Source: Patescibacteria group bacterium (GTDB taxonomy: Bacteria > Patescibacteriota > Minisyncoccia > Phycocordibacterales > UBA2100). Taken from it: 64,000 bases of DNA. Made by a program: the position numbers and the translations under genes. Numbering within the stretch: the first letter of the stretch is position 1; each line of letters begins with the position of its first letter. The DNA lies in assembly GCA_038064835.1 (NCBI GenBank), contig JBBTSD010000001.1, forward strand, positions 100,406-164,405, read 5' to 3'. Of the stretch, positions 4,188 to 56,339 are shown in pieces. The notes under the pieces are model-generated. The model made no database searches. It was not told the DNA's origin and saw only the letters and a list, made by a program, of their open reading frames with translations.

Positions 4188-5326
4188 GTCCCACTTTAGC
4201 TAGCCAAACTTATCGTATGCAAAAAGACACAATTATTGGCGCAGGGGCAGGAGTTGCAATACTCGTTGGAATTGTTGCGTACGGATGGTATGTCTATGGC
4301 CGAGATGTCCCCGCTGAGAAAAAGCCTTTAAGATACACACATGAAAGGCCGCCAAATGTTGTCCTTGCGAAGGACAACAAGGCTTTTGCTGTTGCTGATA
4401 ATTATTTCAAAAATGGTCGTTTTACTGCCGCGCTCGAGAAATACAACGAAGCTATTCTCAAGGCGCGTAATCCAATTGAAGAGAATCAGATTTTGTACAG
4501 AATTGCATTAACAACAGAGAGACGGGGAAACGCGAAAGAGGCGATCCCCCTCTACAAAGAACTTATCGCAAACCCAGAAGCAATATCTTTCATCAAAGCA
4601 TACTCCGCTCAAGAGCTCGCGCTGATGCTTGTGAGTCCTGAAACTATCCATTTAGCTCCGGATATTTTTTCAGGAGACCCTTATGCCAGTTTTAATACAG
4701 AGGGTAACCGCGCGCTCTCTAATCGAAAGATGTTCGAGTACGCCTCCTCCTTTTACCCACTGGCACTTTCCGAGCTCCGTGTAGCCGATTGGTATGCCGA
4801 ACAGCTTTTAAAACCCGCGGTGCGCAAACCAGTCAGTGCTTCGCATGAATATGTTGGTATTATCGAAGATCGCATGAAAAACGCGGACGCAGACATTACC
4901 CGTACATTTGATAGTCCAAGCGAGAGCGGGTTCCTTGATGAAATATTGACACGCAAAGCTGTAGTGATTGGGAAACTCGCAATAGTCAAAATTGTTTCCC
5001 ACGAGGAGGCCGAGCGGGCTTTTGCAGATGCCTTTAATCTTATCGCAGTTCGTTCCCCAGGGACATCTGCCGACCGATGGATGAGATACTATCATGCAAG
5101 ATACTTGCTGAATGTTCCAAGTAGCGAAACCAGGGTTCGAGACATCATTGCGCCTTTTTACGAGACAAATATATACAAGGATGGAGAGATGAAGACTTTC
5201 TTCAAAAACGAAAGGACCAACAAGCAGGGGCAGAAAGTGTACTTACAAAAAATGGCAACGATAGACTCGGATTTCAAGAAATACTTGCTGGGGTTGGGGT
5301 GGCAACCATCAGACTTCCCAAAGTGA
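4178..5326 (+). CDS. Hypothetical membrane-anchored protein (TTG 4178 or ATG 4217)
   Basis: 382-aa ORF with an N-terminal TM helix (IIGAGAGVAILVGIVAYGWYVY) and helical-repeat-like sequence. No recognisable catalytic motif. Confidence 0.4.
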   Translation: MRVGPTLASQTYRMQKDTIIGAGAGVAILVGIVAYGWYVYGRDVPAEKKPLRYTHERPPNVVLAKDNKAFAVADNYFKNGRFTAALEKYNEAILKARNPIEENQILYRIALTTERRGNAKEAIPLYKELIANPEAISFIKAYSAQELALMLVSPETIHLAPDIFSGDPYASFNTEGNRALSNRKMFEYASSFYPLALSELRVADWYAEQLLKPAVRKPVSASHEYVGIIEDRMKNADADITRTFDSPSESGFLDEILTRKAVVIGKLAIVKIVSHEEAERAFADAFNLIAVRSPGTSADRWMRYYHARYLLNVPSSETRVRDIIAPFYETNIYKDGEMKTFFKNERTNKQGQKVYLQKMATIDSDFKKYLLGLGWQPSDFPK

Positions 5327-12083: not shown

Positions 12084-12411
12084 GTGAGCTTCACCATTGA
12101 GAAGGTCTGACCTTCTCAATGCGGCTAGCGAGGAGCGAAGTGATAGGAAGCGAAGCGGACTTTCACTTCGTCCGAGCGAAGACGCACTACAGGGTAGAAT
12201 ACCCTTTATTTTGACAGAAAGAGTCTCGCCATACAAAAACTTGCAAAGTCGTCTTCTTTCTGTATACTGCCCCACACATCCCTTCCCAGAAGGAATGTCC
12301 AAGTCCCTCATATGCATGGAGTAGCGAGAGGGACCAATGGTCGACATGGGTAACCATGCGCGCCATTGGCGCGCTGTTTTTCTAAACAAACAAAACCAAA
12401 AGACAAACACT

Positions 12412-39514: not shown

Positions 39515-39635
39515 GCTCCTCGGGACTTTAGTCCTTACAGGACCTGTACACCTTTTGAGCGATTTAAGAAAATCGCTCAAAAGGTCTTGAGAAGCTTCAA
39601 GTATTCGCTTCTCACCCTTTGAACTTAGTCCTTAG

Positions 39636-51000: not shown

Positions 51001-52885
51001 ATCGACAGCGGGCGAAACTGGTTCAGCAAAACAATGGAAGTTTGGTATCGATACCGATAATGGACAACAGACGGGAACCTCAACAGGATTTTTCCGTATT
51101 CAAGAAGGGAGCTCAGACATGTTTTATATAAATCATGGCGGCCAAATTGGTGTGGGAGTCAAAGATCCTCGTGCACGGTTGCACACAAAAGGAAACCCGT
51201 TCCTTTCAGGGTTTAGCGCAGGGACTATCTCTAGCTCGGGCACGGCTGTAACAGGAAGCGGTACAGGTTTCTTGTTCGGTTCGAACAAAATTAATGTGGG
51301 GGATCAGATTCTTTCGGATGGACAGATTCGTACTGTGACATCCGTGGTGAACAATACGAGTCTTGTTGTTGACTCGGCATTTTCCCCTGCACTAAGTGCG
51401 CACACTTACCAATTTCAGCAACCAATAGCACGATTTGACACCAGTGCAGGTGACACGCGTTTTATTATCGGCCCTGGTGGAAATGTGGGCATTGGTGATT
51501 TAAATCCACAAGGTCTTTTCTCTGTCGGTGCAGGTGATGCGTTCTTTATAAATTCACTTGGAACGGTTGCGAGTGGCACATGGAATGGACAGCGAATTGG
51601 TGCGCTCTACGGCGGTACGGGCTCCACAACACTTTCAGGAATCCTGATCGGCAACGGTGTTAATCCAGTTGGGACGCTTACTGTTGGGTCAGGCCTTTCG
51701 CTTACGGGCACAACGCTCTCGACGAGCGGTGCGGGAATCACCTCAATCGGCTCGTCTGGTCAGCAACAGACAGGTGGAACGCAAGCATTTGCGACATCAA
51801 CAAGTGTAACAAATGGGCTTGTCTCAGGGATAACAATCGTTGGAAATAGCAATACTCACACATTCACTCCATCACTGTCAGGAGTACTGACTGTTGCAGG
51901 AGGCGGCACCGGAGGCACCTCGTTCTCCTACGGTCTCGTCTCCTCACCAGGAGGCACCAGTGCACTCACCAACATCGCGACCTCCTCGCTCGGTCTCCTC
52001 ACTACCGATGTCGCTGAAGGCACCAACCAGTACTACACAGACACCCGTGTGAACACCTATATCAACGCCTCCACCACCATTCCCAAGACATACACTGCCA
52101 ACACATTCACCAACACCAACTCGTTCACCAGTGCACTGATGGCAACAGGAGGATTCCTCTCAAGCGCATCATCCACCATCAATGGCTCACTCGTCGTCAC
52201 CGGTACTGCCACCTCCACCACGCTCGCCGTCACCGGAGTCACCTCATCACTCTTGAAAACAAACTCACTCGGACAAGTCGTCGCCGCAGTCGCTGGCACT
52301 GACTACACAAACTTCGGCTACCTCTTCCCCGCAAATGCCACCACCACCGCACTCTCATTCACCGGAGGCATCACTACCACCAACGCCTCCACCACCAACC
52401 TCTCCGGAAACACCCTCGCCATCGGCGGCACCGCCACCACTTCTATATCAAACACCGGCGTCCTCACACTCCCCGTTGCACTCAGTGCGTCATCAGGTGG
52501 TACGGGCATCTCGTCCGTCTCTGCCGCCCAAATCTTGCTGGGGAACTATGCGGGCACTGGCTGGCAACAACTCGCCACTTCCTCCCTCGGTCTCCTCACC
52601 ACGAATGTCGCAGAGGGAAGCAATCAATATTTCACCAACGCACGCGTACAAACATATCTCGACTCCGTCACCAAAGGATTCTTCTTTGCCACCACTTCCG
52701 CTGACTACTGGGAGACACAGCAGACAGCGCGCTCTGCAGACGACCTCACCAACAACAGTATTGAAGATCTCTCTAGTGAACGAGTAAAGTCGGCTGTCGA
52801 GACTTATCCCGAGTTTTATCTTGTCAAAAGCGACTGGTCTCTCGAAAACATTGTTGCGAAAATTAAAGAAATGCTTGTCGTCTAG
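48038..52885 (+). CDS. Giant (1615 aa) secreted Gly/Thr/Ser/Ala-rich repetitive surface protein (fibre/adhesin-like)
   Basis: Signal peptide MPKILKLLCLLLLVITTLGPVGVLYAAPG. Three copies of a module ...TTISTSSLGLLTTD(I/V)(T/A)EG(S/T)N(L/Q)YYT.TR... and two near-identical copies of ...DYLTSSSIFSYLFPSNATSTALSFTGGITTTNASTTNLSGNTLAIGGTATT.... Recurrent GGTG motifs. Confidence 0.6.
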   Translation: MPKILKLLCLLLLVITTLGPVGVLYAAPGVPTILSFQGRLTDSSGNLLGGSGTGYYFKFSIWDSPTVGSGNRLWPTSAPGSVTTTVRQGVFTVNVGDTANGFPDALTYAFDSETIYLQVEVSSNGSSYETLSPRQQIAASAFARVAGAVSGTGQSAIGTTTPLANTVLTVEATSSIATPLSIRGAPNQSGSLLTILSSVGSSLFSIGSSGSLTALAGALFGNASSTLFSTLDGLYVGRTATTTILGSATSTFGAGVSTTRLETTSASSTINGLRVTGNGLQIASLVNCAEALETDASGNIVCGTDATAAGAADPFTFATNYGITNAATSSPLWALAGINASSTSHFATFDAVAGTTTNFAISNIASSLLKTNATGGIVPAIAGTDYLTSSSIFSYLFPSNATSTALSFTGGITTTNASTTNLSGNTLAIGGTATTTIANTGAITTPTLTIGTLTGFLKATAGVVAAAAVNVAADITGILPTANGGTGWGNVQANTVLLGNGTGALATTTAGANGQVLALVGGVPTWTATTTLSTISGTLGVGTGGTGQTTFAYGLLSSPGGTDALTTISTSSLGLLTTDITEGSNLYYTTTRFDNRLSATTSLPNITTLTNLSISATQLSNFGTPFYQFFSATTTDALTQGSTNKYYSDPLVQAFVHASSTIPKTYTANTFTGANTFSSALTLSGLNGPLDARNGVVGATTSVGVLYGGTGLTSAPSNGSILLGNSSGGYSISATSSLGIALADTTGTLAVARGGTGATTLSDLITLGTHTSGNYLATLTNAGGLTIANSGAETAAVTAALDLTNANTWTGKQNFYGTASSTLFSANRAYFGGTATTSISDAGVLTLAGLTSTLLKADNSNNLVAAVAGVDYSNFAYLFPGNATTTALTFSNGILSSASTTIGAGTQATGLTVSGGATTTGNLIVQGTGTSTFSGGLQATNVYATATSTMAGIISQSIVPNGDATYDLGSATNRFRDLYLSTASLHLESTAGETGSAKQWKFGIDTDNGQQTGTSTGFFRIQEGSSDMFYINHGGQIGVGVKDPRARLHTKGNPFLSGFSAGTISSSGTAVTGSGTGFLFGSNKINVGDQILSDGQIRTVTSVVNNTSLVVDSAFSPALSAHTYQFQQPIARFDTSAGDTRFIIGPGGNVGIGDLNPQGLFSVGAGDAFFINSLGTVASGTWNGQRIGALYGGTGSTTLSGILIGNGVNPVGTLTVGSGLSLTGTTLSTSGAGITSIGSSGQQQTGGTQAFATSTSVTNGLVSGITIVGNSNTHTFTPSLSGVLTVAGGGTGGTSFSYGLVSSPGGTSALTNIATSSLGLLTTDVAEGTNQYYTDTRVNTYINASTTIPKTYTANTFTNTNSFTSALMATGGFLSSASSTINGSLVVTGTATSTTLAVTGVTSSLLKTNSLGQVVAAVAGTDYTNFGYLFPANATTTALSFTGGITTTNASTTNLSGNTLAIGGTATTSISNTGVLTLPVALSASSGGTGISSVSAAQILLGNYAGTGWQQLATSSLGLLTTNVAEGSNQYFTNARVQTYLDSVTKGFFFATTSADYWETQQTARSADDLTNNSIEDLSSERVKSAVETYPEFYLVKSDWSLENIVAKIKEMLVV

Positions 52886-52911
52886 CGTGAGGAACTTTAT
52901 TTTTTGAGAGT

Positions 52912-53400
52912 ATGACTGTCGAGATTCTCAACGACTATCGATGCTCGTGTGGGAAGCTTCTTTTTCGCGGGATGGTACTCACGGGGAGTATTGAAATCAA
53001 ATGTCGCTATTGCAAACGAGTGGAAACAGTCGATGGTTTGATGGAAAAAGGATCTGACCCTGACCGCTACACCCTCATAATCGGAAGAGAAGGGGAAATT
53101 TACAATTCGACACAAGAAGCCTCGCGGGCTCTCGGATATCTGCATTCAGAGCTATCTGCAAGGCGTGTTCAAGATATTGTCTTATTGCCTCATGACGAGG
53201 CATACCAATCTATTCTTCAAAAGCTTGATGGTGGTCAGGTATCAGTCCTTTTCCATTCGTTTGTGAAGCATAAAAATCGTGCCATGATTCCTGTGCAAAT
53301 AACAGCGTGTTTATTTTCAACTCCAGATGGTCAGTGTATCCTTTTTAATATAGAGCATAAAACGGTACGGAACAGAGCACATCGGCTTCAAGAAGCATAG
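52912..53400 (+). CDS. Com-like zinc-ribbon plus PAS-like domain protein
   Basis: N-terminal CSCGKLLF...CRYCKRV (Mu Com-type 4-Cys ribbon), then a PAS-like fold segment. Confidence 0.4.
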   Translation: MTVEILNDYRCSCGKLLFRGMVLTGSIEIKCRYCKRVETVDGLMEKGSDPDRYTLIIGREGEIYNSTQEASRALGYLHSELSARRVQDIVLLPHDEAYQSILQKLDGGQVSVLFHSFVKHKNRAMIPVQITACLFSTPDGQCILFNIEHKTVRNRAHRLQEA

Positions 53401-53451
53401 TTTTTTTGTCCGACAAAGTAAAAACACCCGCTTGCGCGGATGTTTTTACTT

Positions 53452-53617
53452 TGTGGAGATGGCGGGAATTGGTCACCAGTATTTTTCCTGACGGAAAAAT
53501 CTCGCGACCCCGGCTCGCGGTTTTTGCCTTTCCTACGCGTTGCTCCGGAAAACAAAAACAACGCTGCGCCTTTCAATTCCCGTCGAAAGGTGCGCAGGCA
53601 CCTTTCTCCATCTCCCC
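53452..53617 (-). ncRNA. Truncated tandem ssrA-like copy (tmRNA-like 5' domain plus duplicated 3' acceptor end and terminator)
   Basis: Minus strand 5'-GGGGAGATGGAGAAAGGTGCCTGCGCACCTTTCGACGGGAATTGAAAGG... (tmRNA 5' motif UUCGACGGGA) ... CCAATTCCCGCCATCTCCACA-3'. The last 50 nt, including terminator aaaaacatccgcgcaagcgggtgttttt, are near-identical to the main ssrA 3' end. The T-stem is not complementary. Confidence 0.4.
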
Positions 53618-53655
53618 ATACGCAAAAACACCCGCTGGCGCGGATGTTTTTACTT

Positions 53656-54045
53656 TGTGGAGATGGCGGGAATTGAACCCGCGTCCAAAGGAGGAGTAGC
53701 TGATCGGTGTACACAAGGTAGTTCATTTGATTTTGTTTAAACGCAGGATGTGTGAAATGAGCAAAATCATCACGCGTCGAGCTTTCTTTCTTTAGTCAGT
53801 ATCTTGAAGCATCAGACACTGACGAATCCGGCATATATGACATGTACGGCATCTTGTCGGATGAAGATGAGTACACGGCCGCTTAGGCTAATGCGTAAGC
53901 GAAGCTGAGATCTTTCACCTGAATCGGTGAAAGGAACCCCCGTGCGGTTTTATTTGCACTTAGATTTTGAACAGTTTAAAGAAGATGTTCACTTCTCTTG
54001 TGCCTTTCAAGCTCTCGAATCTCCCTGTCGAAGCCAATCATCCCC
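53656..54045 (-). ncRNA. ssrA: tmRNA (SsrA), standard one-piece form
   Basis: Minus strand 5'-GGGGAUGAUUGGCUUCGACAGGGAGAUUCG... and 3'-...GGACGCGGGUUCAAUUCCCGCCAUCUCC-A. The acceptor stem GGGGAUG/CAUCUCC has G3-U70. The T-arm is GCGGG-UUCAAUU-CCCGC. Both ends closely resemble the E. coli tmRNA ends as recalled. An internal frame ...DLSFAYALA-UAA (stop revcomp at 53883-53885) is a plausible tag. smpB lies 0.6 kb upstream on the same strand, and a terminator follows at 53625-53652. Confidence 0.7.
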
Positions 54046-54176
54046 CGTGAGATACCAAATCTGTTGTGCGTTGAGTCTCGAGCATAACGGTAATGTGTGT
54101 TCTCTTTTACTCTGCATTATGTCGGGCTTACGAAGTCCGACAGGTTGTTTAATATCTCATGGGGAAGGACTCGCTA

Positions 54177-54205
54177 CCATGTTGGACTTCGTAAGTCCAA
54201 CATGG
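54177..54205. repeat. Perfect 13-bp-stem hairpin ccatgttggactt-cgt-aagtccaacatgg (GGACTT...AAGTCC family)
   Basis: Related hairpins at 54121-54141 (gtcgggcttacgaagtccgac), 54599-54619 (gttcgactt-cgt-aagtcgaac) and 39521-39533 (gggactttagtcc). Confidence 0.5.
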
Positions 54206-54300
54206 TACGGGTGGCGAGTTGTAGCGAGTTGTAGAAAACGAATGCTTGAGTGTGGAGAGGAGCTGTGGCGGCTCCTCCCTGTAGTGCTGCGTGGGCTGGG

Positions 54301-54534
54301 TTAGCGGAACAAGTGTCCCGCGAGGCCGAGGGGGCTGCCCGCGTAGGCGGCATCCTCGTCATCGCGCGTGGGCTCGATGAAGGCGCGAGCCTTCGCGCTC
54401 CCGCCGCCGAGCGTGTCGTAGCGGGCGTCACGAGTGGCGTAGGTGGCCTTGCGGGCCTCCTCGCGCAGGTCGCGTTCGACAGCGCGTTTCCAATCGCGGT
54501 CCATGCAGTAACCAACATTCCCATTCATAGTCAT
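54301..54534 (-). CDS. Small (77 aa) GC-rich hypothetical protein in a hairpin-flanked mini-cassette between smpB and ssrA
   Basis: AAGGAG RBS 8 nt upstream of ATG 54534. Body about 65% GC. Sequence MTMNGNVGYCMDRDWKRAVERDLREEARKATYATRDARYD... has no recognisable motif. Confidence 0.35.
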   Translation of the reverse strand: MTMNGNVGYCMDRDWKRAVERDLREEARKATYATRDARYDTLGGGSAKARAFIEPTRDDEDAAYAGSPLGLAGHLFR

Positions 54535-54598
54535 TGCAAACACTCCTTGGTTCACTTGGTTGCCACACTTAAGCATTCGTTTATTGTCAAAAATCTAT

Positions 54599-54619
54599 GT
54601 TCGACTTCGTAAGTCGAAC
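54599..54619. terminator. Hairpin of the GGACTT..AAGTCC family immediately after the smpB stop; likely the smpB terminator
   Basis: gttcgacttcgtaagtcgaac. On the minus strand it is followed by atagattttt. Confidence 0.45.
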
Positions 54620-54621
54620 GG

Positions 54622-55062
54622 CTATTGTTTTGAAGCTCGGCGCATCGCACGATCTTCGTCGCGCTTCTTGATATCCTGCCGCTTATCATACTTCTTTTTT
54701 CCGCGGGCGATACCCAGAGAGAGCTTCAAATTTCTCCCCTTATTATACACCGAAAGTGGCACTATTGTCAATCCCCCTGTTCGTTCAGCTTCAGAAACCT
54801 GTTCAATTTGGCTTTTCGATAAGAGAAGCTTTCGAGGGCGCTCAGAATCGTAGGTCTTTGGGGCATTGGCTACCTGCCAAGCAGGGATGGTAACCCCTAC
54901 CAAAAAAGCCTCGCTACCGCGTGCGATTATACGCCCACCGTCCAAGGAGCCCTGTCCTTTGCGGATGGATTTGACTTCATATCCGAAAAGTACCAAACCC
55001 GCCTCGATTGTTTCGAGGATTTCGTAATTCAGTCGCACTTTTTTGTTTTCCAAGAGGGCCAT
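54622..55062 (-). CDS. smpB: SsrA-binding protein SmpB
   Basis: MALLENKKVRLNYEILETIEAGLVLFGYEVKSIRKGQGSL... Start at ATG 55062 (the listed ORF is longer). The K/R-rich C-terminal tail is typical of SmpB. Confidence 0.85.
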   Translation of the reverse strand: MALLENKKVRLNYEILETIEAGLVLFGYEVKSIRKGQGSLDGGRIIARGSEAFLVGVTIPAWQVANAPKTYDSERPRKLLLSKSQIEQVSEAERTGGLTIVPLSVYNKGRNLKLSLGIARGKKKYDKRQDIKKRDEDRAMRRASKQ

Positions 55063-55304
55063 GCTGAAACTATACCATCGACAAGTAAGGTCTGAACAAA
55101 AGTCGTAGAAAATTGTGGCTGGAGCGACGAAGAAAAAAGTGAAATATATCCGTAGATACATTGAGCTTTTTTCTTCGAGCTATAGCATATTTTCAAGACT
55201 TGGTGTTCAGAGATTAGTTGGAGATGGTATTACCACAAACGAGGAGAAAGCGAACGCATTTCCCAATCTTCTTGGTACTATGGAATCAGACAAGAGAGGT
55301 CTTC

Positions 55305-56297
55305 ATGCAATATGTTGGAAATACGGAGGTACTCGCTAATTTTCTACGCAAACAACTGGCGATAGAAAGAGGAGAAAAATCACGCATTCGTCCGGCGATT
55401 GTTGTGCTTGGCGGAGGCATGTCGGGTGTGGTGAGTGCAGGAATGCTCAAGGCACTTCACGAAGTAGCACCACAAGCACCACATGTATGTGCCGGCGTGT
55501 CGGCTGGATCGGGCAATCTGTACGGGTTTCTCGCGGGTGTTCCCGACCTCACTTTGAAAGTGTATGAACATCTTGCAACAAGCGGTTTTGTGACCGGTCC
55601 CTGGTGGAGGATGCGCATGGAGATTGATTTGGTGTGCAGGATTTTGCGTACAGGATTTGAAGACATCATTCCTGATCAGAATGACATCATAATGCATCGT
55701 TCCGAATTCGTGGTGTTCGCTACCGAATATAGTACTGGTCTTGGTCTTGCGATTGATGCAAAGAAAGCTGAGCCAGACATTGTTGAGGCAGTGCGCGCAT
55801 CCATGATGGCTCCGGGAATTTGTTCAGGCACAGTGCACATCGGCGGGAAAGAGTATGTCGATGGTGCGTGCGGCATGCCGTTTCCGGTACGCACTATCGC
55901 GCGTACCTATCGACCTACCGATGTTCTCATTCTGTTCAATCAACCACTGCCAGAAAAGATGGGTTGGGTCGAATGGCTCCTGTTCCCGATTTTTGCGCGA
56001 GTCATTTTGTTGCTTCATGGTGTGTCGCGTCCGGTACGAGATCGCACTGCCGCGATGGATAAAGTGATGGCGTATGAAATCCGTATGCTCAAACGCGAAC
56101 GCGGCAGTGCGTGGTGGCCGTGGCGCGCACAACCAAAGCCACGACAGCACATTCGCTGGATTATGATCGCACCGGACGCATCCGAGACAGTCTCCCAGCG
56201 TTCGGCTGACAAGGTTGCAATTAAGCGGGCAGGTGAGCTTGCGTATGCCAACACCGTACGCTTGATTAGTGTGGTGCGAGAGAGATTCAAGATATAA
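55305..56297 (+). CDS. Patatin-like phospholipase
   Basis: VVLGGGMSGV (GGxR/K-like oxyanion loop), GVSAGS (GxSxG), DGA catalytic Asp motif. Start at ATG 55305 with a GAGAGG RBS. Confidence 0.6.
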   Translation: MQYVGNTEVLANFLRKQLAIERGEKSRIRPAIVVLGGGMSGVVSAGMLKALHEVAPQAPHVCAGVSAGSGNLYGFLAGVPDLTLKVYEHLATSGFVTGPWWRMRMEIDLVCRILRTGFEDIIPDQNDIIMHRSEFVVFATEYSTGLGLAIDAKKAEPDIVEAVRASMMAPGICSGTVHIGGKEYVDGACGMPFPVRTIARTYRPTDVLILFNQPLPEKMGWVEWLLFPIFARVILLLHGVSRPVRDRTAAMDKVMAYEIRMLKRERGSAWWPWRAQPKPRQHIRWIMIAPDASETVSQRSADKVAIKRAGELAYANTVRLISVVRERFKI

Positions 56298-56339
56298 GGC
56301 GCACAAGAAATTTGTGCGCCTTTGTGGTACAATATTTGC

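Follow-up and report, generated by a model that had tools for sequence, protein, structure and literature searches.

Introduction

Few bacterial RNAs are as abundant as tmRNA, and the 3′ end of its gene, ssrA, is the classical site of integration. The closest described counterparts of the locus reported here are the intervening sequences (IVSs) of rRNA, whose open reading frames (ORFs) are generally thought to be unexpressed and whose role is unsettled; to our knowledge, expressed genes under selection have not been shown for rRNA IVSs. The IVS in the 23S rRNA of Coxiella burnetii is 428 nt long, with a 28-bp terminal stem that is cut midway by RNase III and an ORF in the loop; the Shine-Dalgarno (SD) sequence of this ORF is poor and is cut off, and the ORF is decaying (PMC4990558). 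Related pairing is found in the leader-trailer and spacer helices of rRNA operons, which flank 16S and 23S rRNA and are RNase III processing stems (PMC10250234, PMC6582327).

Here we describe a locus from a groundwater Patescibacterium in which smpB and the tmRNA gene are both on the minus strand. All positions refer to the window, the whole 64-kb stretch of DNA that was analyzed. With moderate confidence, we interpret the segment 54236–54582 as a small protein-coding cassette that is closed by a helix of about 20 bp, lies in the 5′ leader of the precursor to tmRNA (pre-tmRNA) in the manner of an intervening sequence, and belongs to an architecture found throughout the lineage. As in rRNA IVSs, an insertion of a few hundred nucleotides is transcribed as part of a stable-RNA gene, its terminal repeats form a long stem with a mismatch (28 bp in Coxiella, 20 bp here) and an ORF in the loop, its occurrence is sporadic among close relatives (filled in L127, empty in L093 and L116), and excision would occur at the level of RNA (by RNase III in the IVS, and probably in the cassette). 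Unlike rRNA IVSs, which interrupt a helix of mature 23S or 16S rRNA, the cassette is located in the leader, so that its removal would fragment nothing. Its ORF differs from that of the Coxiella IVS in having a consensus SD outside the stem and signs of purifying selection. The cargo (this ORF and ten other cargo proteins, analyzed with Pfam) is not of the S23p family and, again unlike rRNA IVSs, varies widely between cassettes, which also form tandem arrays. With the leader-trailer helices, the cassette shares long-range pairing around a functional unit in a highly transcribed stable-RNA precursor, defining a processing unit, but it encloses small protein-coding ORFs and not a stable RNA. In the literature, we found neither a description of helix-closed cassettes in a tmRNA precursor nor a report of an architecture that would put translated genes there.

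The smpB-tmRNA spacer

An earlier note on this DNA, made from the sequence alone, had stated that smpB and ssrA are normally adjacent and are separated by 500 bp here. In relatives in the Paceibacteria/Kaiserbacteria group, the basic spacer is approximately 45–75 nt (median 75 nt). The spacer in the window does contain extra DNA, and its actual length is 576 nt (54046–54621; Table 1). Across the relatives, spacer length ranges from 3 to 1630 nt, and is at least 250 nt in 20 out of 64. The cassette site is located between the smpB stop codon and position 1 of the tmRNA, that is, in the leader and outside the mature stable RNA. Neighboring genes encode a patatin-like protein, FtsH, a 162-aa ORF with only sub-threshold PAS matches and a 1615-aa surface protein. 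Besides tmRNA, a search of the region 52800–55400 against Rfam (E up to 1) returned only sub-threshold miRNA, permuted-tmRNA and isrK matches, which we judged to be due to chance. Separately from the cassette, the ssrA 3′ end is duplicated as a 52-nt direct repeat at 53420–53675, which bounds only about 150 nt and is the real hotspot scar of this gene end.

Table 1. Features of the smpB-tmRNA locus, listed from smpB toward the tmRNA (positions in the window).
Feature	Position	Strand	Evidence or remark
smpB, 146 aa	54622..55062	-	Pfam SmpB E 1.2e-43; smpB→tmRNA synteny kept in relatives
Putative sigma-70-type promoter TTGACA-N18-TATAAT, in smpB codons G-L-T-I-V-P-L-S-V-Y-N-K	54742..54771	-	12/12 consensus match
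HP3, 9-bp perfect hairpin, GTTCGACTT acg AAGTCGAAC	54599..54619	-	3 nt past smpB stop; kept in L153 with a different loop
A/U-rich motif GATTTTTGACAAT, directly 5′ of left arm	54583..54595	-	Read from spacers; in relatives CTTTGAAAAYTAAATA ahead of each cassette
Left (5′) arm of closing helix, AAACGAATGCTTAAGTGTGG	54563..54582	-	Inverted repeat; arm pattern with 2 matches in window vs 0.01 expected; covariation
Shine-Dalgarno AAGGAG	54543..54548	-	8 nt upstream of ATG
77-aa ORF (stop included), hydrophilic, motif ARAFIEPTRDDED	54301..54534	-	dN/dS; syntenic homologues
Apical GC hairpin GAGGAGC cgccaca GCTCCTC	54257..54277	-	1 nt ahead of right arm
Right (3′) arm of closing helix, CCACACTCAAGCATTCGTTT	54236..54255	-	Inverted repeat; one A.C mismatch (sense strand), perfect pairing in L153
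10-nt tandem repeat, 2.1 copies, GCGAGTTGTA	54214..54234	.	TRF
HP2, 15-bp perfect hairpin, core as HP3	54175..54207	-	Inverted repeat
Leader hairpin of pre-tmRNA, 5′ arm, CCCCATGAGATA	54153..54164	-	Inverted repeat; conserved and co-varying in relatives
HP1, palindrome, same core, loop inverted	54120..54142	.	Inserted in leader-hairpin loop
Leader hairpin, 3′ arm, TATCTCACGGGG	54043..54054	-	Last 3 nt = tmRNA nt 1–3
tmRNA gene, tag ANKTARGFLSPIQVKDLSFAYALA	53657..54045	-	ARAGORN; Rfam RF00023, 128 bits

A long inverted repeat delimits the cassette

The ORF is bracketed by a 20-nt inverted repeat with 95% complementarity (left and right arms in Table 1), which the earlier note had missed. Including this one, the 64 kb contain just two long-range inverted repeats with a length of 18 nt or more, compared to about 0.2 in shuffled sequences. 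The closing helix that the arms form is present in the minimum-energy fold of the spacer (z −8.7). The unit is the 347-nt segment 54236–54582, bounded by the 20-nt repeat. In the window, the arm pattern matches at the two arms only.

Alignment of the arms of 37 cassettes showed that 91.6% of the cells are paired, against 31–43% with slid partners; as the arm pairs were found by an inverted-repeat search, this percentage is partly the result of construction. Changes on both sides were observed in 17 of the 20 pairs and the covariation score was 0.533 versus at most 0.116, counts that are inflated by the shared ancestry of many of the cassettes. The wobble pairs are biased on the sense strand (29 G.U versus 11 A.C), with one column containing U.G 17 times, C-G 11 times and U-A 8 times. 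Covariation and wobble bias together fit an RNA helix, as judged from the aligned arms; single-stranded sense DNA would be expected to give the same wobble bias.

The A/U-rich motif found directly 5′ of the left arm recurs ahead of the second and third cassettes in arrays (L087, L110, L135, and L136). The apical GC hairpin, including its loop, is identical in L153, L127, L118 and the empty form L093. We considered this hairpin as the T-arm of a tRNA-like domain, an idea that was rejected as the length (3–20 nt) and the sequence of the loop vary. Its strand CUCCUC could act as an anti-SD switch in arm family A, but this strand is absent in family B and such a switch is thus not general.

The enclosed ORF

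In agreement with the earlier description of a small GC-rich gene with an AAGGAG ribosome binding site (RBS), the GC content of the ORF is 66%, compared to 50% for the window. Its GC3 is 79.5% versus approximately 50% in the adjacent genes, with the in-frame order GC3 > GC1 > GC2; the helix-module model does not account for this excess. Compared with the syntenic copy in L153, the closest relative found (SmpB 91% identical), the dN/dS of the ORF is 0.22, the lowest of the six frames (0.37–2.3 in the other five), and the differences by codon position (9/5/17) are dominated by third positions. More distant syntenic homologues are present in L127 (E 2e-7) and L118 (E 0.002), which have the protein motif in common. 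These comparisons indicate that the 77-codon ORF is a real gene under purifying selection.

Searches with the protein recovered only itself, both in a word-indexed set of 5.8 billion proteins and with exhaustive phmmer in 1.8 billion representatives. Neither Pfam nor PHROGs gave a significant match for the ORF or for ten other cargo proteins, the one sub-threshold Pfam match of the ORF having an E-value of 0.039. The protein has a net charge of 0 and a best 17-residue hydropathy of 0.37, and AlphaFold2, run without an alignment, predicted one helix and disorder with low confidence (pLDDT 58). In L153, a 10-nt indel shifts the SD-proximal ATG into a frame other than that of the conserved ORF. 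Translation may truly begin at Met11; otherwise, the indel reflects an error or a decaying copy in a low-coverage contig.

A presumed promoter within the smpB coding sequence

In 78 of 80 relatives, the hexamers of the putative sigma-70-type promoter recur with an unchanged codon offset, and the conservation extends to synonymous positions. Because this promoter is conserved within the smpB codons, the cassettes are placed inside the leader of the pre-tmRNA. The spacers of some relatives, at only 3–12 nt, leave no space for a different promoter. The smpB-embedded promoter is therefore presumed, on the basis of this conservation, to drive the pre-tmRNA and hence the cassette as well. It would explain how the tmRNA is transcribed in genomes with a gap of 3–50 nt between smpB and ssrA, and a promoter written in smpB codons constitutes a clear case of dual-use coding sequence. 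The A/U-rich motif with the left arm was tried as a promoter of the cassette itself and rejected, since it is without an acceptable −10 element at the right spacing. On the plus strand, a consensus scan found a single promoter-like match, where the cassette has its 5′ end; it is directed toward smpB and can therefore not yield an RNA antisense to the ORF.

Cassettes in related genomes

Among the 21 expanded spacers examined (window included), approximately 19–20 show the order arm, SD, ORF, GC hairpin, arm. In relatives, nearly every expanded spacer contains between one and three cassettes built in this way, and in the cassettes examined an SD-like site is located 5–9 nt ahead of the start codon and the GC hairpin abuts the 3′ arm. 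In the arrays (L021, L022, L033, L087, L110, L135, and L136) each cassette has its own matched pair of arms, and adjacent cassettes in L033, L022 and L136 have arms of different families without local pairing. The cargo ORF has the orientation of smpB and tmRNA in all 46 listed cases. Single-pass hydrophobic peptides of 23–66 aa make up 16 of these 46 cargo proteins, and roughly two thirds of all cargo is soluble. The GC content of the cargo is above that of its own locus in 33 of 40 cassettes.

By the earlier note's own criterion, relatives with the same conserved spacer would speak against a mobile element, and this is partly what we find: L153 contains this cassette at the corresponding site, together with HP3 and a second cassette on the far side, and more distant relatives retain the architecture with other cargo. 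The cassette and leader of the window most resemble those of three genomes with an SmpB identity of only 58–63% (L118, L127 and L022); genomes with 67–70% SmpB identity contain other cargo. Cargo presence also differs between the co-occurring near relatives L127 and L093. L093 and L116 keep the helix and the apical hairpin without cargo, with flanks nearly identical to those of the filled L127. The empty form in L093 most plausibly goes back to a secondary deletion, as L127, L118, L153 and the window all have homologous cargo.

Searching metagenomes with the arm pattern gave 68 matches, 16 of which have a second, inverted arm. Fifteen of these adjoin smpB and/or tmRNA, and in the sixteenth (L130) the tmRNA is just downstream, as identified by eye. 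The remaining 52 matches, single, unpaired and away from smpB and tmRNA, were set aside; their number is about that expected by chance, by a rough estimate that takes into account the size of the collection and a pattern of 18 nt with three degenerate positions. The smpB-tmRNA spacer was the only place where paired arms of this family were found. In 80 relatives, 22 of 32 long inverted repeats are likewise inside this spacer. The arm pattern was absent from viral contigs.

A model for the cassette

Under the interpretation we favor, transcription would start at the sigma-70 promoter in the last third of smpB and proceed through the smpB stop codon, the cassette and the leader hairpin into the tmRNA. 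The arms would pair in the sense RNA and stack on the adjacent GC hairpin, folding the ORF into a closed domain that leaves the folding and 5′ processing of the pre-tmRNA undisturbed and the SD free for translation. Cleavage of the helix by RNase III would then free a small mRNA, clamped at both ends, from the pre-tmRNA. By analogy with the 23S rRNA IVS and the leader-trailer helices of rRNA operons, RNase III is the most likely enzyme to cut the closing helix. A tblastn search of the 64 kb and the fetched loci with E. coli RNase III (an approximate query) gave no match to rnc, which is uninformative either way. Promoter use, co-transcription and translation of the ORF are likewise inferred, from sequence features.

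As the cassette ORFs have a consensus RBS and the one tested is under purifying selection, the purpose of such inserts becomes directly testable. We tentatively raise a broader scenario, which we regard as possible but doubtful: in Paceibacteria, the pre-tmRNA leader may serve as a platform for gene cassettes at the level of RNA. Each small ORF, closed off by its own co-varying helix of about 20 bp, would form an autonomous module open to release by a nuclease, and such modules would be gained, duplicated, altered and lost at this single site. The platform could be a nursery and expression dock for new small proteins, such as membrane peptides and acidic proteins, some of which might act on ribosome rescue. 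If so, the locus would represent a stable-RNA intervening-sequence system with expressed and selected genes, and the tiny-genome Patescibacteria would gain a defined site for the emergence and turnover of small proteins.

Alternative explanations

On balance, the data favor an architecture that operates at the level of RNA and is shared across the lineage over the recent integration of a mobile element. The earlier note had proposed a miniature element that is bounded by GGACTT hairpins and integrated at the ssrA hotspot; the extra DNA, the gene and the presence or absence of cargo hold, and the hairpin borders do not. The classical hotspot is the 3′ end of ssrA, the cassette lies 5′ of the gene, and we found no integrase, target-site duplication or second copy. 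The described family of three hairpins, one of them inverted, is real: HP1, HP2 and HP3 share the core GACTT-NNN-AAGTC, with the loop of HP1 in the other orientation. A relaxed pattern matches four times in the 64 kb (0.11 expected), the fourth match (60631) not being a hairpin, and the three hairpins are clustered in this spacer. In addition, HP1 is paired with HP2 as an inverted doublet and represents inserted sequence when compared with L118, L154, L119, L127 and L128, where it is missing from the aligned site (L010 has a different palindrome there), and a related palindrome is located inside a gene in L136, as one copy in another genome. REP/REPIN elements come as tens to hundreds of dispersed copies per genome with an associated RAYT transposase; in the 64 kb, the three copies are all in this spacer. 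As borders, however, the hairpins fail. It is the 20-nt inverted repeat that delimits the unit, the homologous cassettes of L127, L118 and L022 either lack hairpins at the corresponding positions or have different ones there (an unrelated hairpin often occupies the HP3 position in relatives), L153 has HP3 with the second cassette on the far side, and HP1 lies outside the cassette, in the leader loop. Perfect short-loop hairpins are moreover common in this genome (17 in the 64 kb), and the true hotspot scar is at the other end of ssrA. We therefore regard a hairpin-bounded element as very unlikely. A DNA-level mobile cassette, with the arms as recombination or transposition sites (integron-, pdif-module- or MITE-like) at a fixed site beside ssrA and the enzyme encoded elsewhere, is unlikely. 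As in integrons, small promoterless ORFs with unrelated cargo are arrayed in one orientation behind one upstream promoter, each with an inverted-repeat element, and ssrA 3′-end islands and prophages likewise add DNA beside ssrA. The A/U-rich motif ahead of each array cassette, the presence and absence between co-occurring strains, the cargo GC, the foreign-looking GC3 of the window ORF and the resemblance to cassettes of genomes with less similar SmpB fit such mobility as well. Against it, pair-by-pair covariation of the arms is expected of base pairing and not of two protein-binding sites, and the wobble bias is strand-specific. Integron attC sites are local imperfect inverted repeats that follow the ORF on its 3′ side and contain R″/L″/L′/R′ boxes, whereas the arms flank the ORF 134–1153 nt apart without a local attC-like hairpin. 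Neither intI nor attI was found next to the cassette, no integrase or transposase is present among the neighboring genes, and no recombinase within approximately 5 kb. MITEs and TIR transposons occur as many dispersed copies in either orientation with a target-site duplication; here, the arm ends lack such a duplication, all 16 paired matches are in the smpB-tmRNA spacer with co-oriented ORFs, and there is no second cassette locus in the 64-kb window or the 440-kb contig. Islands at ssrA insert 3′ with a direct repeat and an integrase, unlike this cassette with its inverted repeats 5′ of the gene, and the empty L093 is best explained by secondary loss.

A type I toxin-antitoxin-like module, in which pairing between its 5′ and 3′ ends keeps the mRNA of the ORF inactive in the manner of hok/sok, with control through processing or through an antisense RNA, would account for the hydrophobic peptides among the cargo, and long-range 5′–3′ pairing and tandem arrays of small ORFs are typical of such loci. 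Yet the protein in the window is hydrophilic, with one predicted helix and disorder, the majority of the cargo is soluble, the SD is outside the helix and free in the predicted fold rather than sequestered, and the position in the tmRNA leader is fixed. An antisense promoter was not found either, the only plus-strand match pointing toward smpB in a consensus scan that is weak at excluding others. This explanation is highly improbable in our view. More remote still, and largely refuted already, is a chance ORF within a GC-rich, structured non-coding RNA. Three frames are open here, with overlapping ORFs of 116, 120 and 91 aa, predicted folding is strong, and database homologues and a confident structure model are lacking for the protein. 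These points are outweighed by the dN/dS, lowest in the ORF frame, by the prevailing third-position differences, by the GC3 > GC1 > GC2 order in this frame, by the consensus SD 8 nt ahead of the start, and by the motif kept in L127 and L118. Moreover, neither the cassette nor the ORF belongs to an Rfam family, the sole match in the spacer being the sub-threshold miRNA on the HP1–HP2 doublet.

Adjacent to the right arm, the spacer contains a short tandem repeat. The earlier note had correctly recognized it, with a period of 11 nt; TRF analysis gives a period of 10 nt. As it is single-copy in L153, the repeat is a local slippage duplication.

Organization of the smpB-tmRNA spacer

The host belongs to the Paceibacteria/Kaiserbacteria group of Patescibacteria, and its SmpB finds its best match among GTDB species representatives at 68% identity; contig CAYHZP010000001.1 of GCA_964361175.1 carries a sequence identical to the window. 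On the minus strand, the smpB stop codon is followed by hairpin HP3, an A/U-rich motif, the left arm of an inverted repeat, a Shine-Dalgarno sequence, a small ORF, a GC hairpin, the right arm, a 10-nt repeat, hairpin HP2 and the 5' arm of a leader hairpin, and then by HP1, the leader-hairpin 3' arm and the tmRNA. The 20-nt inverted repeat enclosing the ORF, missed by the earlier note, delimits what we call the cassette, with the enclosed ORF as its cargo. The separation of smpB and ssrA, previously put at 500 bp, is 576 nt as measured, and the tandem repeat reported there is present (2.1 copies) with a period of 10 rather than 11 nt.

Features of the smpB-tmRNA locus in the window
Feature	Position	Strand	Remarks
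smpB	55062..54622	minus	Pfam SmpB, E 1e-43
Sigma-70 promoter motif	54771..54742	minus	TTGACA-N18-TATAAT, perfect match; smpB codons G-L-T-I-V-P-L-S-V-Y-N-K
HP3	54599-54619		core GACTT-NNN-AAGTC
A/U-rich motif	54583-54595	minus	TTTTTGACAATAA; 5' of left arm
Left arm of inverted repeat	54563-54582	minus	20 nt, 95% complementary to right arm; flanks ORF
ORF, 77 aa	54534..54301	minus	AAGGAG 8 nt upstream of ATG
Apical GC hairpin		minus	GAGGAGC-cgccaca-GCTCCTC; between ORF and right arm
Right arm of inverted repeat	54236-54255	minus	flanks ORF
HP2	54175-54207		core GACTT-NNN-AAGTC
Leader hairpin	54153-54164 with 54043-54054	minus	pairs CCCCATGAGATA with TATCTCACGGGG
HP1	54120-54142		core GACTT-NNN-AAGTC
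tmRNA	54045..53657	minus	ARAGORN; Rfam, 128 bits

The 64 kb contain two long-range inverted repeats of 18 nt or more (approximately 0.2 in shuffles), namely the cassette arms and one derived from a duplicated terminator. The spacer folds with a z of -8.7 relative to shuffles, and the arms are paired in the minimum-energy structure. The GC-rich gene with its ribosome-binding site, as described in the earlier note, was recovered; it has a GC content of 66% and a GC3 of 79.5%, in a window of 50% GC where neighbouring genes have a GC3 near 50%.

The three hairpins of one core are likewise real (a relaxed pattern gave four matches against 0.11 expected, the fourth being no hairpin). HP1 is a palindromic insertion within the leader-hairpin loop, absent in five relatives; L010 has a palindrome there too, but one unrelated to HP1 (L numbers denote smpB-tmRNA loci of related genomes or metagenome contigs). 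HP3, a gene-end hairpin, is retained in L153, but there its loop differs and apparently points the other way, so that the orientation of the loop cannot be taken as a stable character.

Transcription of the tmRNA

Of 80 relatives, 78 have the promoter hexamers at this same smpB offset; in the other two, indels displace them. Within these codons leucine is always TTG and threonine almost always ACA, while nearby synonymous sites vary. As the gap between smpB and tmRNA is just 3–12 nt in some relatives, there is no room for another tmRNA promoter there. We infer that tmRNA transcription starts inside smpB, the motif probably being the tmRNA promoter of the whole clade, which would place the cassettes in the pre-tmRNA leader.

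The leader hairpin, whose 3' arm overlaps tmRNA nucleotides 1–3, sequesters the first three nucleotides of the mature tmRNA, and its pairing is kept in relatives with quite different sequences, e.g., CCCCGATTGAAT/ATTCAATCGGGG and CCCGCGTACGAA/TTCGTACGCGGG.

Cassettes in related genomes

The gene order smpB then tmRNA is conserved in relatives. The earlier note described the two genes as normally adjacent; 35 of the 64 spacers measured are indeed below 100 nt (median 75), and 20 are at least 250 nt. Nearly every expanded spacer repeats the build of the window. In these cassettes a left arm ending in ...GTGG precedes a Shine-Dalgarno sequence 5–9 nt before the start codon of a small ORF, and a GC-rich hairpin abuts a right arm starting with CCAC.... 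Arrays of two or three cassettes, each with its separately matched arm pair, are present in some spacers (for example L021, L022, L033, L087, L110, L135, and L136), and all 46 cargo ORFs examined are on the smpB/tmRNA strand.

The arm pattern ACGARTGCTTRAGKGTGG, used for locus searches, matches only the two arms in the window, is absent from the viral contigs searched, and occurs once as such a locus in a 440-kb contig. Metagenomes gave 68 matches, 16 with a second, inverted arm; smpB and/or tmRNA was detected alongside 15 of these, and for the remaining one, on the short contig L130, tmRNA begins just downstream, as judged by eye. By our rough estimate, the 52 unpaired matches are about the number expected by chance for a collection of this size. 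The smpB-tmRNA spacer, although a small share of the sequence, accounts for 22 of the 32 long inverted repeats detected in 80 relatives.

Two loci, L093 and L116, are cargo-free, with the left arm joined straight to the apical hairpin and right arm, and their flanks are near-identical to those of L127, which is filled and shares its source metagenome with L093. Since L127, L118, L153 and the window all have homologous cargo, precise secondary loss is the best reading of the empty state. In L153, a second cassette with membrane-protein cargo takes the place of the 10-nt repeat and HP2.

The A/U-rich motif (CTTTGAAAAYTAAATA in its general form) lies 5' of every left arm in L087, L110, L135 and L136, also forms the last smpB codons in some genomes, and follows the cassette in L154.

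The ORF and other cargo

Protein searches returned no database-level homologue of the ORF, and neither Pfam nor PHROGs gave a significant match, but homologues missed by these searches were found via synteny. L153 (SmpB 91% identical) shares the arms, and its ORF is 86% identical, with a dN/dS of 0.22 in the ORF frame vs. 0.37–2.3 in the other five, and differences of 9/5/17 by codon position. The L127 and L118 homologues share the motif [AG]R.F..P.RDDE[DE] with the ORF (pairwise E 2e-7 and 0.002). Judged by its substitution pattern, the ORF is a gene under purifying selection. Owing to a 10-nt indel, the Shine-Dalgarno-proximal ATG of L153 is out of frame; its ORF may start at Met11, or the low-coverage contig may be erroneous. 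The structure model of the ORF is poor (pLDDT 58), with one helix (residues 10–43) and a disordered acidic tail.

Cargo proteins are varied: 16 of 46 are single-pass hydrophobic peptides of 23–66 aa and the remainder are soluble and often acidic, with few and small families common to several genomes. Pfam detected no domain in the ten larger cargo proteins tested, and PHROGs gave no match for ten tested. Cargo GC exceeds host locus GC in 33 of 40 cassettes.

Pairing of the arms

An ungapped alignment of 37 distinct cassettes was anchored at the inner arm ends. Standard pairs fill 91.6% of cells vs. 31–43% with the 3' partner slid by 1–3 columns, a percentage that is partly by construction, as pairs were found via an inverted-repeat search and many cassettes are related; 17 of the 20 base pairs vary on both sides, and the covariation score is 0.533 vs. 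at most 0.116. Beyond construction, homologous positions hold differing sequences that each match their own partner, even within one array. Non-Watson-Crick cells on the sense strand comprise 29 G.U and 11 A.C. One column contains U.G 17, C-G 11 and U-A 8 times; as duplex DNA or antisense RNA, close to half of the cassettes would be mismatched at this position, so the helix acts in the sense strand. The arms thus most likely pair as RNA, which is a more natural reading than the alternative of sense-strand single-stranded DNA.

Models for the cassette

The model with the best support operates at the RNA level, with the cassette as a closed domain of the pre-tmRNA leader. The helix would keep the insert from disturbing leader folding and 5' processing; arms of approximately 15–26 nt (mostly 19–23), next to a stacked hairpin, fit a double-stranded RNase III substrate, and cleavage would free a clamped small mRNA. 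The description of the cassette is well supported, whereas its processing and function are what we infer. Mobility at the DNA level, of the integron, pdif-module or MITE type, keeps some weight, as it would suit the arrays, the unrelated cargo and its GC excess, and the resemblance of the window spacer to spacers of genomes with more distant SmpB; arm covariation, the strand bias of wobble pairs and uniform cargo orientation speak against it, and no recombinase, target duplications or other sites were found. Another rival is the hairpin-bounded element of the earlier note, but the hairpins do not delimit the cassette. Further rivals to the closed RNA domain are a type I toxin-like module and a chance ORF.

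Among known elements, the intervening sequences in 23S rRNA genes come closest. That of Coxiella is 428 nt long, with terminal inverted repeats forming a 28-bp stem that has a single mismatch and a single bulge; an ORF lies in its loop, and RNase III excises it through cuts mid-stem (PMC4990558). Frequent rRNA-gene insertions are known in CPR bacteria (PMC11270868). In contrast, the cassettes sit in the tmRNA leader instead of a mature rRNA helix, have a ribosome-binding site that matches the consensus and lies outside the stem, show purifying selection on the ORF, carry varied cargo not of the S23p family, and form tandem arrays. Our literature search found no description of such cassettes in a tmRNA leader.

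Additional features of the leader and window

In L088 (5990-6392), a second segment resembling the tmRNA 5' end (GGGGGAAGATTGAAAA...) lies between leader hairpin and tmRNA, followed by a GIY-YIG-like nuclease ORF, identified by eye; the near-identical L137 shares both, and similar pseudo-5'-end segments are present in L132, L135, L136 and L130, indicating that this leader harbours other insertions as well. Inside a 598-aa ORF of L136 lies a perfect palindrome (2516-2545) whose stem has 17 bp and whose 15-nt core, GGACTTCGTAAGTCC, is that of the window hairpins; it may be an in-frame palindromic insertion.

Perfect hairpins (stems 9–16 bp, loops 3–5 nt) number 17 in the 64 kb vs. approximately 0.5 in shuffles, and may be the usual gene-end punctuation of this genome; examples are at 4357-4379, 12095-12121, 39550-39585 and 56296-56322, and many lack a U-tract. 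A 162-aa ORF (52912-53400, plus strand), also called in the public assembly, is convergent on the tmRNA and has an N-terminal CxxC...CxxC, with sub-threshold Pfam matches only (PAS). A 52-nt direct repeat (53420-53471 and 53624-53675, 98% identical, 204 nt apart) comprises the last ~20 nt of the tmRNA plus terminator and encloses ~150 nt, among them a T-arm-like piece in inverted orientation; the arrangement resembles a scar left by an event at the 3' end of ssrA, the classical integration site.
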